Assembly: GCA_951406725.2 (NCBI GenBank) | Contig: OX597836.1 | Coordinates: forward strand, 25,048,001 to 25,112,000 | Origin: Octopus vulgaris | Lineage: Eukaryota | Length of the DNA: 64,000 nt | Direction of reading: 5' to 3' | Part shown: one piece after another, positions 1,461 to 30,485 of the stretch | Layout: each line of letters starts with the position of its first letter | Numbering within the stretch: position 1 is the stretch's first letter | Program-made: the position numbers and the translations under genes | The notes under the pieces: model-generated | Database searches by the model: none | Told to the model about the DNA's origin: nothing | What the model saw: only the letters and a program-made list of their open reading frames with translations

Positions 1461-3904
1461 AGGTAATTCAACTGTAACTAATTTCACTTTTTGCTTAACA
1501 TTGAATACCACAAAGTCTGCTCGCCAACCTTTTTAAACTCGTAAGGTTGGTAACCCATTGATGGATATTTCTGATCATAACTGCCCGATGTAATGAGACA
1601 CTGTACCCATAAACAACAGGGTGGACTAGACAGGGTGAGTGATGAGGATGGTAGCAGCATGGTGAATAAAAACTAGGTGGGTCCAGTACCAGTGTGGCAT
1701 AAAAGAGTGATGGGCGGGGAGGATCATAACAAGGCCCGTAGCACCCTGCCTGGAAGCACATTGAATAGGAGAGATCCACCCACCATCCTCAGTCATAGTA
1801 GAATGTCGTTTGGGTGTTGGTTGGTTGGTTGGTTGGTCTGTGATTGTGACTGGTTGAGTTGATGAATGAAAATACGTTTCTTTGGGTGCAGGAAGAAGAA
1901 CCTGAATAACACCTGTGAACCCTTAAGTATTCACATTATTCTGCCCCAAATAATGCTTTCTTTATTGTCATTGTTTTGGATTAATCATGTCATTATCTTG
2001 TAGCTTTGAGATTATGATATGATTATTTTCAGAATGACATTGTAGGATAGGTGTGAGAGGCCAGATCTGGCTAGGTTGAACATAAAACTGGCCAATTGTT
2101 TTGGCTGGATATGACCCCATTTAAATGCTAAAGGTGCTGAGAGAAGATTTTATTATCGCACATAGAAGTCCAAACTGCATTGGTCTTCTTCTACAAATAA
2201 CAACAGCAGTAATTACATAATTACAGGTGAGATATACAGTTTGGAGTTCATGGCCAGCTTACTGAGACAGCAACATGTAGATGGCCCAACATAGCTGGAA
2301 ACATGTGGTGATGGAGGGTCTTGTGTATCTGTCCTGTCCCCTTTGTGATTTGATCTGTCCAATTCTTTCCACGCCTTCCTTGGTCATCTTCTGCTACAGT
2401 GTGTGTGTGTTTAACTTTTGTCTTTTCACTTGTTTCAGTCATTGGGCTGTGGCCCAGCTGGGGCAATGCCTTTAAAAATTTTTAATCGAATGGATCGACC
2501 CCAGTACTTTTATTTTTGTAAAGCTTAGTACTACTAACTCTATTGGTCTCTTTGTAAATACTGTTGTTGAACAGTGGTGGGGGACAGACACACACATTCA
2601 CACACACACACATATGCATTCACACATACACATAAAGGGCTTCTTTCAGTTTCCATCTACAAATTCCAATCACAAAGTTTGGGTCAGCCTGAGGCTGTAG
2701 TAGAAGTCACTTGACCAAGGTGCCACACAGTGGGACTGAACCTGAGACCATGTGGTTAGGAAGCCAGCTTAATACCTATTTCTTTACTACCCACAAGGGG
2801 CTAAACACAGAGAGGACAAACAATGACAGACAAACGGATTAAGTCGATTACATCGACCCCAGTGCATGATTGGTACTTAATTTATCGACCCGGAAAGGAT
2901 GAAAGGCAAAGTCGACCTCGGCGGAATTTGAACCCAGAACATAAAGACAGAGGAAATACTGCTAAGCATTTCGCCCAGTGTGCTAACGATTCTGCCAGCT
3001 CGCCACCTTGAATACCACAGCTTAATACCACACAGCCATGCCAGGCCTGTCTGTGTATGCAAGGTGTTCCTCTTCCATTACCACAGTACCTGGGCACTTT
3101 GTCACTTTGCACTCAATACGGCAGTGGGGTGGGTATTCCATGCCTCACCTGTCAAACCCCAACCATCTTAATAACTCCTGTCACTCTACTGCACCTAACA
3201 AACTGATAAATCTCTCTCTCTCTCTTTTCCTATTCTCTCTTCTTCTTCTCTCTTTCTCTCTCTCTCCTCCCCCTTCTACCTCCTCTCTTGTCTTCCTATA
3301 ATTTTCTTGGTTGCATTCTCTCACCTTTCACCTTAATAAACATAATGAATGGATTAATTAGTGATTAGAATTAACAATGGAATTAGTTCAATGGTCAGGC
3401 TGATAGTGTGATTAGGACAAAGTAAGAATAGCAAGGGATTAAGTACCATGCTGATGGTGGCACTGAAAATAATGGTCCGGTGTGGGTGGGGTGGGGTTAA
3501 GTAGGGAAGTTGGTGGTTATTAGGAGTAGTAGTGGGGGTGGCAGTAGTAATAATACTGTGGTAGGAGGAGTAGTGTTGTGTCAGTGGTGACAGTAATGAT
3601 ACTATGACCGCCATGTAAGTGTTATGGTGGTGGTGGTGGTGGTGGTAATGGCTTTGTGACAGGAGTGGCAGTGTTGATATTGTAACAGTGGTGGTGGTCA
3701 TGGTAGTGGTTTTGAGATGGTTCAGCAAAAGAATTTATCCATCTAAAACTACAAAAACAACAACAAAACTATGAAATGGTTAATGCCATATTTTTTTTTT
3801 TTTATATAAAAGTGAATCCAGTTACTTGTTTCTGTTGACTGTAGCCATGCTGGGGCACCACCTTGAAGGTTTTTTTTGTTGTTTTTTTTTAGTTAAATGA
3901 ACTA

Positions 3905-4051
3905 GGTGGTAAGTAGCTTGCTAACCAACCACATGGTTCCAGGTTCAGTCCCACTGCGTGGCATCTTGGGCAAGTGTCTTCTGCTATAGCCCCGGGCTGA
4001 CCAATGCCTTGTGAGTGGATTTGGTAGACGGAAACTGAAAGAAGCCTGTCG

Positions 4052-4092
<41 letters not shown>

Positions 4093-4308
4093 ATGTTTGT
4101 GTGTCTGTGTTTGTCCCCCTAGCATTGCTTGACAACCGATGCTGGTGTGTTTATGTCCCCATCACTTAGCGGTTCAGCAAAAGATACCGATAGAATAAGT
4201 ACTGGGCTTACAAAGAATAAGTCCCGGGGTCGATTTGATCGACTAAAGGCGGTGCTCCAGCATGGCCGCAGTCAAATGACTGAAACAAGTAAAAGAGTAA
4301 AAGAATAA
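3905..4308 (+). mobile_element. tRNA-derived SINE family A (CORE-like, internal TA/TG microsatellite)
   Basis: Pol III B-box-like ggttcagtccc, cttgggcaagtgtcttct core, and aaaagagt tail. Confidence 0.9.
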
Positions 4309-4767
4309 AGAGATCTCTTTCCCCACATTTCAAGCCCCTTGTGCCTTTAGTAGAAAAGATCATAATTACTCTATCTTCTCTGCTAGTCTTACCCCCCCCT
4401 CCACCACCTGTCGTTACTCTACACATCTAAATAGATATATTTATCTAAATTACCACATTCAGTTCATTGAACTTATCTTCTTTGTATAGATTTAGATCTG
4501 TTATAGTACTTGACTCCATTGTTTTTGTTAACTTTTCCTCTCCTAATTTACTGTATTGCATAATTACTAATTAACAAGTGTAATCATACATTATAAATTA
4601 ATGAGAAAGTTTTATGTTTCACTTTTACCTGCTGGGTCATTATAAAATTGGCAGTACTTGTGGTCTTTGTGGATGCTCTTAGACTGGTGAGGTTGGTACT
4701 GTTTTATGATGCATTTAAACTGTTGTAGGTCGGCCACCTGAAGGTAGGACAGGAGCAGGGAAAATAT

Positions 4768-5239
4768 TTCAGAGTTATGATGTACTACAGAGGAAAGACA
4801 AGGCTTAGGGGTTAGTGTGGTGGAGTTGGAAACAATAAGGGTGACGAAAGGGTAGATAGATCAGTTGCAATGTCACAGGTGCCAATTCAGAGTTATGATG
4901 TACTACAGAGGAAAGACAAGGCTTAGGGGTTAGTGTGGTGGAGTTGGAAACAATAAGGGTGACGAAAGGGTAGATAGATCAGTTGCAATGTCACAGGTGC
5001 CAATTCAGAGTTATGATGTTTTACAGAGGAAAGACGAGGCTTAGGGGTTAGTGTGGTGGAGTTGGAAACAATGAGGGTGACGAAAGGGTAGATAGATCAG
5101 TTGCAATGTCACAGGTGCCAATTCAGAGTTATGATGTTCTACAGAGGAAAGATAAGGCTTAGGGGTTAGTGTGGTGGATTTGGAAACAATAAGGGTGACG
5201 AAAGGGTAGATAGATCAGTTGCAATGTCACAGGTGCCAA
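4768..5239. repeat. Tandem repeat, 4 x 118 bp
   Basis: ttcagagttatgatg recurs at 4768, 4886, 5004 and 5122, and the units are nearly identical. Confidence 0.97.
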
Positions 5240-6118
5240 ACTGTATCAGCCCCTTTGCCTTTCCTTCAGGTAACATTACTGGTGTGGAGAGGGATGGTTA
5301 GTATGCATGGGCAACTGTTGGTCTTCGATAAACAACCTTGCTTGGACTTGTACCTCGGAGGGTAACTTTCTAGGTGTAACCGTATGGTCATTCATAATCA
5401 ATGGGGGGGTCTTCACTTTTATATATAATATATAAAATAAATGTACCCTTTTTAAAGCCTAGCCAGGCCCATGGGCCTGGTTTCCGTGGTGTATGTGTTC
5501 CCAGCTGGATGGGACGCCAATCCATCGCAGCGCTACTAATTTTTACCAGCTGAGTGGACTGGAGAAATGTGAAATGAAGTGTTTTGCTCAAGAACACAAC
5601 ACGTCGCCCGGTCCAGGAATCGAAACGACAATCTTCCATCATGGTGCTGACGCCCTAAACACTAAGCCATACACCTCCACCACTTTTATATATATAAAAA
5701 CAAAATTGTCAACCAGATATATTATCAACCCACAGGTCATGAGTTCAAACCCACATTGCATCCTGCTTTCTCATAATGCATTTATGATAAAATATTCAAT
5801 TTACTCGCCTTCAGTCCATTTCTCATCTATCTCTCATTACGTAGGCAACAGCTAAGCTATGATGGAGTGAAGTTAACTGTAATATCCTGTTGTATTATTC
5901 CAGAGAGATTCATTTCTCTAATTTCCTCTGTAATTAGAGACTCACTGGTGGCCAAGTTCTGTTCTGTTTCTAGAATTTTATTGCAATGTCATCAAAGTGA
6001 TTCCACTGGACAAATGTGGAAACATATTTGTTTTTATAATATTTTTTTTACTTTACATTTATTCATACATTAATTATTTATTTAATTATTGAATTAATGT
6101 TTCATCTTTACTTTGTAG

Positions 6119-7127: not shown

Positions 7128-7177
<50 letters not shown>

Positions 7178-7365
7178 GTGTCTGTGTTTGTCCTCCCACC
7201 ATCACTTGACAACCGATTTTGGTGTGTTTATATCCTTGTAACTTAGCGTTTCAGCAAAAGAGACCGATAGAATAAGTACTAAGCTTACAAAGAATAAGTC
7301 TTGGTAGGGTTGATTTGTTCGACTAAAGGTGGTGCTCCAGCATGACCGCAATCAACTAAAAAACA
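6978..7365 (+). mobile_element. SINE family A
   Basis: Similar to 3905-4308. Confidence 0.85.
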
Positions 7366-7654
7366 AAGAGGTGTATCAGTTTAATGTTCGTGAAGAATGG
7401 AAAAGTCTTTTACATTTCAAGCCTATGCTCTTTGACAGGAAAGATTAAGATGGGAAAAAATGGAGAGAGAATGAGAAACAGAGAGAGGAAAATGCACAGA
7501 ATTCCACAGTCCAACATGATGATATATGAAGTACTTACTTTCAAAACCAGATATATGCTTTGGAAGAATTTGTTTAAAACAACTAGAATATATACATTTC
7601 GTTTTGGGATTTGGTTTGCAAGATTCTTTATGTGAGTTCGTGTGTCAAAGCATA

Positions 7655-7797
7655 TTCTGTTGTGTCTGGGGAGAGTCATTTTCTTTTAGTGCCTTATAAT
7701 TTATCACATTCACCGGTAAAATTTCCACTTATTTCTTTTTTATTTTGCTAAAATTTTCATTGCATCTTGTGACCTTTTTATATTAACACAGAGTATT

Positions 7798-7829
<32 letters not shown>

Positions 7830-8053
7830 TTAGACACATACAGGCACATGGCTTAGTGGTTAGGGTCTTTCACTCGAGTTTGTAAAGTCAAGAGTTCAAT
7901 TCCCAACTGTGCATCTTGCGACCTATTGAAAAAGTTGGAAGACGCAACGAAAATTTTAGGAAAATAAAAAAAGAATAAGTGGAAGTTTTACCAGTGAGTG
8001 TGTTAAATTATAAGGCACCAAAAGAGAATGACTCTCCCCAGACACGACAGAAC
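7655..8053. repeat. Inverted repeat with ~125-bp arms, interrupted by an insertion
   Basis: 7655-7778 is the reverse complement of 7929-8053. Confidence 0.9.
7922..7960 (+). ncRNA. Hammerhead-like fold with U3-A8 core
   Basis: CCTA-TTGAAAA-a-GTTG-gaagacg-CAAC-GAAA-AT-T-T-TAGG. Confidence 0.5.
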
Positions 8054-8250: not shown

Positions 8251-8650
8251 CAGGAGTGGCTGTGTGGTAAGTAGCTTGCTAACCAACCACATGGTTCTGG
8301 GTTCAGTCCTACTGCGTGGCATCTTGGGCAAGTGTCTTCTGCTATAGCTCCGGGTCGACCAATGCCTTGTGAGTGGATTTGGTAGACGGAAACTGAAAGA
8401 AGCCTGTCGTATATATGTATATATATGTGTGTGTGTGTGTTTGTGTGTCTGTGTTTGTCCCCCTAGCATTGCTTGACAACCGATGCTGGTGTGTTTACGT
8501 CCCCGCCACTTAGTGGTTCGGCAAAAGAGACCGATAGAATAAGTACTGGGCTTACAAAGAATAAGTCCCGGGGTCGAGTTGCTCGACTAAAGGCAGTGCT
8601 CCAGCATGGCCGCAGTCAAATGACTGAAACAAGTAAAAGAGAAAGAGAAA
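8251..8650 (+). mobile_element. SINE family A
   Basis: Near full-length young copy. Confidence 0.9.
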
Positions 8651-10801: not shown

Positions 10802-12869
10802 TGACAAACTTCTGTGTAGTTTTTGTCTACTAAATTTCACTCACAAAGCATTGGTCAGCCTGAATCTATAGCAGAAGGTACCACACATTGGGGTGGAACC
10901 TGAAATCACTTCTCAGCCAAATTTGTACAACACACACACACACATGCACATGCATACAGATACATGCACGTGCACACACATGTGCATATGAAATGCTCTT
11001 ACACAATTGACTACAAATACTTGGACTCCATATTTTTATATTAACACAGAGTATTTAAGCTCTCTCTCTCTTTACATACATACAGGCACATGGCTTAGTG
11101 GTTAGGGTCTTTCACTCGAGTTTGTAAAGTCAGGAGTTCGATTCCCAACTGTGCATTGTATCCTTGAGCAAGACGTTTCATTTTCACATTTCTCCAGTCT
11201 CCTCAACAGACAAAACGATTCATACCTGTAATTCAAAGCGCCAGCCTTGTCACATTCTGTATCATGCAGAATCTCCCTGAGAACTACAAGAAGGGCACAC
11301 GTGTCTGTGGAGTACTCAGCCACTTGCACATGAATTTCATGAGCAGGCTGACCTATTGACCACCACAGTTCCAGGACACACATCTGCATTAAAGAAGCTA
11401 TGCTGAAATTTCGTGACAGTTCTGTAAATGGTATATTCCTTGCCAATAAAAAAAATCTAGACTTCTCTATGACAACATTTTGCCACAATTTGCCAAATTA
11501 CAATATTCCTGACAGCAATAAAACATTACTAAATTCTTTGGTAAAATATTTTCTGGGAACTGAACTGCCAGAATGAAACTTTAGCAGTTCATTTCTTTCA
11601 TTAAATAGTCTTGAAATTTCTCAAAGAATTTCAGAGATTTAACTTTAAAGTTCTGTGTTGTTGCTTTTGTTGTTGTTGCCAATGGTCACATTACAGAACT
11701 TGCCGTAGAAAGTACTTTCTTCTTGGATTACATTACCCGCCACACTAAAAAAAAACCTCCATCAAATGACTGGAACATTTCACCATTTACCCTACTTCTG
11801 TGACAAGAAGAAAAGTTTGTCTAGACTTCTTAATCTGTTTACATGCTTCTGATAAATAGCCACTTACTGTATTTGCACACATTGGAAGATGGCTACCTCA
11901 AGTGGTTTAAGAGGTACTTGCTGTTGTGGTTTTTAAACAAACGTCACCATCATTTAATGTCCATGTTGATGATGATGATGTTTGTTTAAACAAACATGAC
12001 CCCAAATTGTTTTCAAATGAAAGAACGGAATTAAGATGAAACAAAACAGGTGACGAAAGTATTAAATATATTGGCATGGCTGTGTGGTTAAGACGTTCAC
12101 TTTGCAACCATGTGGTTTTGAGTTCAGTCCCACTGTGCAGCATCTTGGTCAAGTGTCTTCTGTTATAATCCTGGGTCAACCAAAACCTTGTGCAAGTGAT
12201 GGCGGACACACACGCACACACTCGACGGGCTACTTTCAGTTTCCATCTGCCAAATCCACTCACAAGGCTTTGGTTGGCCTGAGGCTATAGTAGAAGACAC
12301 CTCCCCAAGGTGCCACGCAGTGGGACTGAACCTGCAACCATGTGGTTAATAAGCAAGCTACTTACCACACAGCCACACCTGCACCTATTATTATCATCAT
12401 TATTATTATTATTAAGGTGGCAAGCTGGCAGAATGGTAAGCATGTCGGGTGTAATGCTTAGCAGTATTTTGTCCTTCGCTACGTTCTGAGTTCAAATTCT
12501 GCCGAGGTCAGCTTTACCATTCATCCTTTCATGGGGATCGATAAAATAAGTACCAGTTGAACACCGGGGTTGATGTAATCAACTCATCCCCTCCACAGAA
12601 TTGCTGCCCTTGTGACAAAATTTGAAACCATTATTATTATTATTAAGGTAGCGAGCTGGCAGAATCGTTAGCATACTGCACAAAATGCTTAGCGATATTT
12701 TGTCCGTCTGTACTTTCTAAGTTCAAATTCCGCCAAGGTTGACTTTCCCTTTCATCCTTTCAGGGTCGATAAATTAAGTACCAGTTACATACTGGGGTTG
12801 GTGTAATTGACTTATCCCCACTCCCAGAATTTCAGGCCTTGTGCCTATAGTAGAAAGGATTATTATTAT

Positions 12870-13268
12870 TGTGGTAAGTAGCTTGTTTACCAACCACATG
12901 GTTCCGGGTTCAGTCCCACTGCCTGGCACCTTGGGCAAGTGTCTTCTGCTATAGCCTCGGGCTGACCAGAGCCTTGTAAGTGGATTTGGTAGACGGAAAC
13001 TGAAAGAAGCACGTTGTATATATGTATATATATGCATGTGTGTGTGTTTGTGTGTTTGTGTGTGTGTGTTTGTCCCCCTAGCATTGCTTGACAACCGATG
13101 CTGGTGTGTTTATGTCCCCCGTTACTTAGCAGTTCGGCAAAAGATACCGATAGAATAAGTACTGGGCTTACAAAAGAGTAAGTCCCGGGGTCGAGTTGCT
13201 CGACTAAAGGCGGTGCTCCAGCATGGCCGCAGTCAGTCAAATGACTGAAACAAGGAAAAGAGTAAAAG

Positions 13269-15887: not shown

Positions 15888-16298
15888 GCGCAGGAGTGGC
15901 TGTGTGGTAAGTAGTTTGCTAACCAACCACACGGTTCCGGGTTCAGTCCCACTGCGTGGCATCTTGGGCAAGTGTCTTCTGCTATAGCTCCGGGCCGACC
16001 AATGCCTTGTGAGTGGATTTGGTAGACAGAAACTGAAAGAAGCGCGTCGTATATATGTATATATATATATATGTATGTATGTGTTTGTGTGTCTGTGTTT
16101 GTCCCCCTAGCATTGCTTGACAACCGATGCTGGTGTGTTTACGTCCCCGTCACTTAGCGGTTCGGCAAAAGAGACCGATAGTACTGGGCTTACAAAGAAT
16201 AAGTCTCGGGGTCGATTTGCTCGACTAAAGGCGGTGCTCCAGCATGGCCGCAATCAAATGACTGAAACAAGTAAAAGAGTAAAAGAGAGTAAAGAGAG
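15888..16298 (+). mobile_element. SINE family A nested in a family C SINE (15782-16500)
   Basis: The host SINE is split between tttcacattgc and ctcagctggcaaaaatgag. Confidence 0.85.
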
Positions 16299-26148: not shown

Positions 26149-26193
<45 letters not shown>

Positions 26194-26204
26194 GTATATT
26201 TTTT

Positions 26205-26405
26205 TTGTTTCAGTCATTTGACTGCGGCCATGCTAGAGCACCACTTTTAGTTGAGCAAATCGACCCCAGAGCTTATTCTTTGTAAGCCAATTACTTATTC
26301 TATTGGTCCCTCTTGCTGAACCGCTAAGTGACGGGGATGTAAACATACCAGCATTGGTTGTCAAGCGATGCTGGAGGGACAAACGCAGACACATATATAT
26401 ATATG

Positions 26406-26443
<38 letters not shown>

Positions 26444-26602
26444 ACAGGCTTCTTTCGGTTTCTGTCTACCAAATTCACTCACAAGGTTTTGGTTGGCCCG
26501 AGGCTATAGTAGAAGACACTTGCCCAAAGTGCCAAGCAGTGGGACTGAACCTGGAGCAATGTGGTTGGTAAGCAAGTAACTTACCACACAGCCACACTTG
26601 CG
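26205..26602 (-). mobile_element. SINE family A
   Basis: Reverse-orientation copy. Confidence 0.9.
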
Positions 26603-26609
26603 CACGCGT

Positions 26610-30217: not shown

Positions 30218-30485
30218 ACAATTGCAGCGTGGAAGGTGTTTATAAGCCATTTAAGAAACACACAAAAGCCGTTTGATTCACTTCAACATTTAAGTTTAAT
30301 TAGTCAAAATATTTTCGTCGCTATAAGACCGTGACCTGTTCACTCACGGATTTTTGTCAGTGAACAAGTCGCGGTCTTAAAGCGACGAAAATATTTTGAC
30401 AAATTAAACTTAAATATTGAAGTGAATCGAACGGCTTTTGTGTGTTTCTTAAATGGCTTACAAACACCTTCCACGCTGCAATTGT
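30218..30485. repeat. Long inverted repeat with ~127-bp arms and a 14-nt loop (probable inverted PLE terminus)
   Basis: 30218-30344 is the reverse complement of 30359-30485 with only scattered mismatches. Confidence 0.95.
30353..30403 (+). ncRNA. Hammerhead-like fold with G3-C8 swapped core
   Basis: TTTGTCA-GTGAACA-a-GTCGC-ggtcttaaa-GCGAC-GAAA-ATAT-T-T-TGACAAA: 7-bp stem I, 5-bp stem II and palindromic stem III. Confidence 0.65.

Follow-up and report, generated by a model that had tools for sequence, protein, structure and literature searches.

The motif at 7922-7960 of the window (the whole 64,000-nucleotide stretch of Octopus vulgaris contig OX597836.1 that was analysed) is a real hammerhead motif of a known kind. 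It is likely a minimal type-I hammerhead in the pseudo-LTR of a high-copy Penelope-like element (PLE) encoding a reverse transcriptase (RT), a zinc-finger linker and, at the C-terminus, a GIY-YIG domain, with a cut that would depend on a second copy and probably on protein, and with the window copy itself likely inactive. Checked against the sequence, the letters and coordinates of the original prediction were as described. The parts of the motif, together with a comparison motif elsewhere in the window, are as follows.

7923..7959, forward strand: minimal type-I hammerhead in family geometry (sequence, family column counts, stem pair counts)
7923-7925 with 7957-7959, forward strand: stem I in family geometry, 3 bp (family column counts, stem pair counts)
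7922-7925 with 7957-7960, forward strand: stem I as originally predicted, 4 bp (sequence letters)
7926-7932, forward strand: hammerhead core, with U3 at 7926 and A8 at 7931 (sequence letters)
7933, forward strand: extra base 9b, after A9 (sequence letters)
7934-7937 with 7945-7948, forward strand: stem II of the window copy, 4 bp (sequence letters)
7934-7938 with 7944-7948: stem II in family geometry, 5 bp, the fifth pair broken in the window copy
7949-7951, forward strand: G12-A13-A14 (sequence letters)
7952-7955, forward strand: palindromic AAUU of stem III (sequence letters)
7956, forward strand: H17, with the predicted cut directly 3' of U7956
30353..30403, forward strand: family B hammerhead with G3-C8, a 7-bp stem I and a 6-nt palindromic stem III (comparison motif)

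A descriptor that accepted any Watson-Crick 3-8 pair and an optional 9b, and demanded stems I and II of at least 4 bp and a palindromic stem III, matched the window at two sites, 7926 (U3-A8) and 30360 (G3-C8), and had no match in 300 dinucleotide shuffles of the window. It found no second motif of the U3-A8 family, here termed family A, in the window. Of the 160 Rfam matches of the window at E up to 10, the 150 that were listed include no hammerhead family.

Genome-wide, a pattern comprising the core plus stem II yielded 3,992 exact matches against 0 for its reversed control, a count in which a palindrome may enter with each of its arms and from which decayed copies, that in the window among them, are absent. 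Searched against the 2.8-Gb genome, the right arm of the window locus gave at least 1,478 first-look candidates; it is 92-94 % identical to the best 29 other loci. The U3-A8 minimal hammerhead was borne out by 58 aligned arms, whose loci had been located by queries lying upstream or downstream of the motif and not by the motif itself: U3 was present in 58/58, A8 in 57/58 and G at 9b in 54/58, and in the motif-blind family A copies U4, G5, A6, A9, G12-A14, A15.1, U16.1 and a non-G H17 were the majority bases. Stem I differed from the original prediction. The base preceding its 3-bp strand, equivalent to 7922, was A in all 56 of 56 arms chosen without the motif, and among the 22 copies at the 58 loci that passed the motif filter pairs 1, 2 and 3 formed in 18, 16 and 18, respectively, whilst pair 4 formed in one. 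Since A rather than C comes first in the family and the fourth pair is found in 1/22, the family stem I is 3 bp long; family members do not carry CCTA 5' of the core, an outcome that the original prediction had named as counting against it, and the suggested extension of stem I in a family consensus (for example TTCCTA/TAGGAA) was rejected. This helix is changed on both sides relative to its kin, and its pair probability in an intact copy is 0.18-0.26. The 5-bp stem II was upheld by the family copies, but the left arm that had been cited in its support is itself degraded in stem II. In the window copy, position 7938 is G against C in the family, which shortens the stem to 4 bp. The G10.1-C11.1 pair occurred in 21/21 rows, a pair fixed by the search pattern. 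The palindromic AAUU was present in 20/22 family A copies and, as predicted, is too short for intramolecular closure, since alone it cannot make a hairpin. The predicted cut after 7956 agrees in position with the site predicted from the family geometry.

Examination of other copies supported the proposed Penelope-like carrier, with an RT/GIY-YIG ORF found upstream of the motif and a pair of same-sense repeats in one copy. Walking upstream from the motif led through a CA-rich 3' region and then into the ORF, which in copy L070 runs for 665 aa without a stop and contains YVDD, a linker of the form C-X4-C-X2-C, the YIGET strand, and C-C-H-H. Pfam returned RVT_1 (E 0.008) and GIY_YIG_2 (E 0.013) for the ORF, both below the Pfam cut-offs, and its homologues are named RT-domain proteins, the closest of 184 being one from Octopus vulgaris that is 62 % identical. 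The L070 motifs were read by eye and carry the names used in the accessible text of PMC8557442. Copy L123 has same-sense repeats at 2740-2993 and 7165-7359 with the ORF between them, and the frame from the ATG equivalent to 8028 continues into the N-terminus of the ORF, in what is a decayed copy whose frame has stops. A putative AUG lies about 70 nt after the predicted cut, which would place the hammerhead in the 5' leader of the pseudo-LTR. The 3' ends of 70 arms fell mainly into two classes, at +129 to +135 (25/70) and at +187 to +189 (30/70); the alignment reference stops at the latter position, where other end data show a sharp end. Tail ends adjoined TA in 19/29, and inverted 5'-truncated partners, partial tandems, one-sided tails and TA targets were all found among the copies. 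Judged by these sequence features, the carrier is a C-terminal EN+ PLE of the Neptune or Nematis type.

Other assignments were considered and set aside. The endonuclease is C-terminal rather than N-terminal, which speaks against a Naiad-type PLE; the presence of CCHH and a linker of C-X4-C-X2-C rather than CxCX5C speak against a Hydra-type PLE; and a non-LTR retrozyme, built of non-coding head-to-tail tandem units with a hammerhead in each, does not fit the fetched copies, which derive from an element with an ORF and lie scattered as 5'-truncated ends. A search of the 64-kb window gave no PLE ORF remnant, metagenome contigs gave no relatives, a PDB search gave nothing useful, a check for expression listed no RNA holder, and a donor-like site 3' of the motif, considered as an intron start, had no GT-AG joint in the contigs. 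Two further repeats were observed in the window. A 118-nt tandem repeat at 4650-5357, with units 97-98 % alike, contains a GTGACGA word followed by AAG and gave no descriptor match. A second, common SINE-like repeat has copies at 3893-4305, 8251-8649, 12858-13065, 15891-16287 and 26187-26604, and also interrupts L123.

Inserted copies keep the motif whole. In a set of 29 loci selected on the 3' end, the 5' end lies at -10 to -4, just upstream of the motif, in 11, and within 3 nt of the cut in none (0/29). Twenty-four fold-back joints lie at one 7-nt complement of this common 5' end, and all six that were fetched were confirmed (6/6). As no 5' ends lie at the cut and the joints lie at the -10 end, we infer that uncut RNA ending near -10 is the template, as for PAc, the Poseidon element of Anolis carolinensis. 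Reverse transcription would have two internal starts, both within the ORF's first ~85 nt, uncut RNA would be copied back to an end ~10 nt upstream of stem I, and the cDNA end would then fold back at microhomology to give a palindrome. Since AAUU cannot close on itself, a second same-sense copy or a helper must be supposed. The predicted hammerhead dimer of family copies has an energy of -5.4 to -8.6 kcal/mol against -15.6 to -21.3 kcal/mol for the lowest-energy fold, tertiary contacts left out; the modelled dimer thus lies 10-13 kcal/mol above the best alternative, making a chaperone likely. Stem III would be supplied by the second same-sense copy and the weak 3-bp stem I probably held by the element's protein, with the cut after U7956 expected only in such an assembly. 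Cutting, if any, would come after copying or apart from it, and may serve to process or shut off tandem transcripts. That intact family RNA cuts under some such assisted condition seems to us somewhat more probable than that it does not.

The common 5' end has a further property. Positions -10 to -4 of the family A leader are complementary to +108 to +114, the start-codon region (L043, L054, L229-L234), and family B has a 6-nt equivalent in different letters. It is this complement in family A at which the 24 fold-back joints lie. An open search admitting G-U pairs gave P ~0.4 for this outer helix, and a narrower test chosen afterwards gave P 0.011 for family A and 0.10 for family B. With statistics this weak, pairing of the 5' end with the start-codon region is offered as a lead only.

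Family B, represented by the comparison motif, had been described as a different family, with the palindrome around the family A motif otherwise dissimilar. Downstream of the motif, however, an alignment of the two repeats scores 92 against 48 +/- 6 for shuffles (0/500), and family B is a divergent relative of family A rather than unrelated to it. For two older copies this alignment test failed (340/500 and 407/500 shuffles), and their kinship rests on the motif, short shared blocks and the tree. At the inner pairs of stem I, family A reads A-U/U-A/C-G; family B reads A-U/C-G/U-A, as do the old relatives, and one pair has changed again in the L208 subfamily; stem I is 3 bp long in family A against 5-7 bp in relatives. 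Stem III is self-complementary with different letters, namely AAUU in family A, a 6-nt palindrome in 20/24 family B copies and variable letters in old copies. Across 21 distinct rows, pair 3 of stem II was never broken, with C-G in 12 of them and U-A in the other 9, a partly circular result in that the 22 rows were hand-picked from those fetched, are related, and were found with a pattern that fixed four of the five pairs. Taken together, these comparisons indicate that stems I-III covary across related subfamilies.

Several observations concern family B itself. The family B repeat (window 30345-30485) has G3-C8 in 6,293 exact matches genome-wide, and its best copies are 97-99 % alike; family B would be the better one to assay for cleavage. 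No paper reporting natural G3-C8 cores in PLEs was found in the literature on 3-8 variants, for which PMC4209133, PMC3088659, PMC7151607, PMC3884650 and PMC6003772 were listed. At L064 3490-4290, a 5'-truncated, tailed family B copy occupies the axis where the arms of a family A palindrome meet, an arrangement that is either a nested insertion or a template switch between the two families; L064 and L065 are one segmental duplication. A further G3-C8 hammerhead-like motif at L219 has other stems and flanks and apparently belongs to another family.

The catalytic 3-8 pair takes several forms across the genome. Alongside the G3-C8 matches and the 3,992 U3-A8 matches, the two commonest classes and both Watson-Crick, there were 169 U3·G8 and 21 C3-G8 sites, 217 with G3 or A3 opposite G8 (by subtraction) and 284 with C3 opposite a base other than G. 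The original prediction had called U3-A8 a known natural core covariation, and the accessible text of both PMC3088659 and PMC4209133 agrees. U3·G8 characterizes a sister subfamily (10/10 fetched) and older copies (11/11 fetched), these having been drawn from the G8 list minus sites already listed as C3-G8. Family A forms a supported young clade inside a U·G/C-G group (97/100) in a tree that is rough, with a midpoint root, unsettled bootstrap, long branches and a family B set biased to young copies. U3-A8 also occurs in other backgrounds (L208, L220, L221, L224 and L226). Because the C3 class stands at ~7 % of the U3-A8 count against a background T>C of 1.25 %, and because copy L227 carries a C3·A8 mismatch in both arms, mismatched cores were evidently copied. 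The covarying stems and the mismatched forms of 3-8 together suggest that the fold is selected and that a Watson-Crick 3-8 pair is not needed for insertion. As to A-to-I editing as a possible source of the core variants, A>G was 1.75 % and T>C 1.25 % (p = 0.065), with 1.65 against 1.41 in the ORF.

Two simpler histories of these states were set aside. C3-G8 is not supported as a clean compensatory sister family, as the same backgrounds are mostly U3·G8 (10/10 and 11/11), and if C3 occurs at family A's 7 %, mutation alone could produce ~8 C3-G8 per 100 sites that are U3·G8 or C3-G8. Descent of family B from a G3·G8 ancestor is not supported, as G3-C8 copies have the same background and the family B set is biased to young copies. 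Separately, the two arms of copy L138 differ, one carrying C3-G8 and one U3-A8. A fuller account, which we put forward tentatively as a minority possibility, is that the lineage has rebuilt its catalytic pair stepwise, from older C-G and U·G to U-A and G-C in the two youngest families, whilst stem I shrank to 3 bp, giving a protein-fired switch that would cut a leader whose 5' end pairs over the start codon.

The family could instead be a relic, a once-working hammerhead of which nothing but the stem II hairpin is retained, to bind protein or to act as a promoter element, whilst the core drifts. A stem I shorter than in relatives, the amplification of mismatched cores, the lack of 5' ends at the cut in 29 copies and PAc insertion in vitro unhindered by hammerhead mutants (accessible text of PMC11167929) would all fit such a history. 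It is nevertheless unlikely, as two stem I pairs have changed on both sides and the L208 subfamily has changed one again, the conserved core bases are still the majority in motif-blind family A copies, and the two most numerous classes both have a Watson-Crick 3-8 pair.

The preferred reading, of an assisted hammerhead in a PLE leader, separates the family from the copy in the window, which lies in a fold-back palindrome (7597-8052) with the following parts.

7923..8052, forward strand: right arm, a piece of the pseudo-LTR in sense orientation that ends at the proximal 3' end class, with no tail (identity to 29 loci; end classes)
8028..8052, forward strand: likely start codon and first ORF codons (frame in L123; start position inferred)
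7910..7924, reverse strand: 15-nt duplicate of the end of the inverted arm, also at 7761-7775 (sequence; folding)
7775..7914, forward strand: spacer at the palindrome axis, a templated copy of window 11033-11156 (sequence match)
7655..7779, reverse strand: left arm, an inverted 5'-truncated copy of the same repeat with a degraded hammerhead (89.5 % over 114 nt to the right arm)
7597..7654, reverse strand: 58-nt tail on the left arm only, a Penelope-like insertion signature (two 3' end classes)

The locus would have arisen when an insertion folded back at 2 nt of microhomology (7923-7924), and the palindrome would later have been broken at its axis and patched with DNA from 3.2 kb away. Local DNA was templated into the axis (7775-7914 from 11033-11156), with short microhomologies and the 15-nt duplication. 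The spacer consists of unique flank, a CT repeat and the head of a tRNA-like SINE; window 11033-11156 was the only match covering query bases 1-140 among the 40 listed, and differs from it by 4 substitutions and a CT-length change. Such an insertion presumably resembles end-joining repair of a broken cruciform. The C at 7922 was supplied by the inverted piece (the 15-nt duplicate) at the fold-back joint, and the fourth stem I pair of the window copy is an artefact of that junction.

These features bear on the obligate dimer of the original prediction, taken here as an efficient, protein-free one with an active window copy. The palindromic AAUU agrees with that view, as does the fold of 7922-7960 in isolation, which has stems I and II (stem II pair probability 0.996), and dimers of the minimal S. 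mansoni motif cleave weakly in vitro according to the accessible text of PMC4209133. Against it, the fourth pair is the junction artefact described above, the stem II pair probability falls to 0.009 in context, the 15-nt duplicate is predicted to pair with stem II and out-compete it, and a read-through transcript is predicted to form a -193 kcal/mol hairpin. The descriptor found no second family A motif in the window to act as partner, and the inverted arms, which run in opposite senses and would anneal to one another, cannot serve as one. We regard this view as very unlikely. The broken stem II pair and the trapping inverted sequence suggest that the window copy is probably damaged and inactive, and that it cuts is highly improbable. 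Chance reading of A-rich junction sequence is the least credible explanation, for despite the base composition, the short stem I and the lack of a hammerhead among the Rfam matches listed, it is contradicted by the empty shuffles, the thousands of genomic copies, homologous motifs that occupy the same place and have the canonical C3-G8 core, a pseudo-LTR position as published (accessible text of PMC4209133), and the motif-blind family columns and stem pair counts.

U3-A8 minimal hammerheads (min-HHRs) in PLEs were published in 2014 for the Schistosoma mansoni element Cercyon, with ~1,300 hits (Cervera and de la Pena, PMC4209133). As far as the accessible text of that paper goes, the octopus family shares with min-HHRs of S. 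mansoni and other metazoan PLEs the type-I order, pseudo-LTR position, extra base 9/10.1, G10.1-C11.1, palindromic 15.2-16.2, U3-A8 core, mostly single truncated copies, and opposite-strand pairs, given there as 100-700 bp apart. Its helix II has 5 bp against 7-8 in S. mansoni, and its helix I 3 bp against 4-5 in S. mansoni and 2 in D. virilis; the octopus host and the four 3-8 pairing states within one related lineage set it apart from the min-HHRs described in that text. By sequence comparison, the testable PLE min-HHR features all appear to be present except a firm helix I.

For PAc, the accessible text of Frangieh et al. 2024 (PMC11167929) describes protein-assisted cleavage, uncut RNA as substrate and two internal RT starts. 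The octopus family resembles PAc in a hammerhead at the pLTR-ORF junction, a tail from two internal RT starts and AT-rich targets. Unlike PAc, whose core is C3-G8 and whose ORF starts inside stem II in the same text, it has U3-A8 and a likely AUG beyond the predicted cut; its 58-nt tail and an ORF with the zinc-finger linker described for Neptune and Nematis also differ. It resembles these EN+ PLEs, as described in the accessible text of Craig et al. 2021 (PMC8557442), in its RT, CX2-5CxxC linker and C-terminal GIY-YIG with CCHH, and in its partial tandems, inverted 5'-truncated copy, one-sided tail and (TA)n bias. The natural U3-A8 covariation was reported active in vitro (Perreault et al. 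2011, PMC3088659) and a natural core with U3 and G8 is cited in PMC7151607; in the accessible text of these two papers such variants are rare and occur in other contexts, whereas those in octopus are whole retrotransposon subfamilies. The openly accessible literature on octopus or cephalopod hammerheads and Penelope/retrotransposons yielded only PMC8557442, and no paper on this family, which the supplements of PMC8557442 or PMC4209133 may list.

The motif itself confirms the 2014 description in another animal group. Standard descriptors demanding C3-G8 would miss almost all of the at least 10,000 motifs. Their value is as a test set of related subfamilies in one genome, with U-A, U·G, G-C and C-G at 3-8, a stem I of 3 to 7 bp and anything from tens to thousands of copies. 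A side-by-side assay of these subfamilies would address whether PLE hammerheads cut in vivo and what role cutting has in the spread of the elements.
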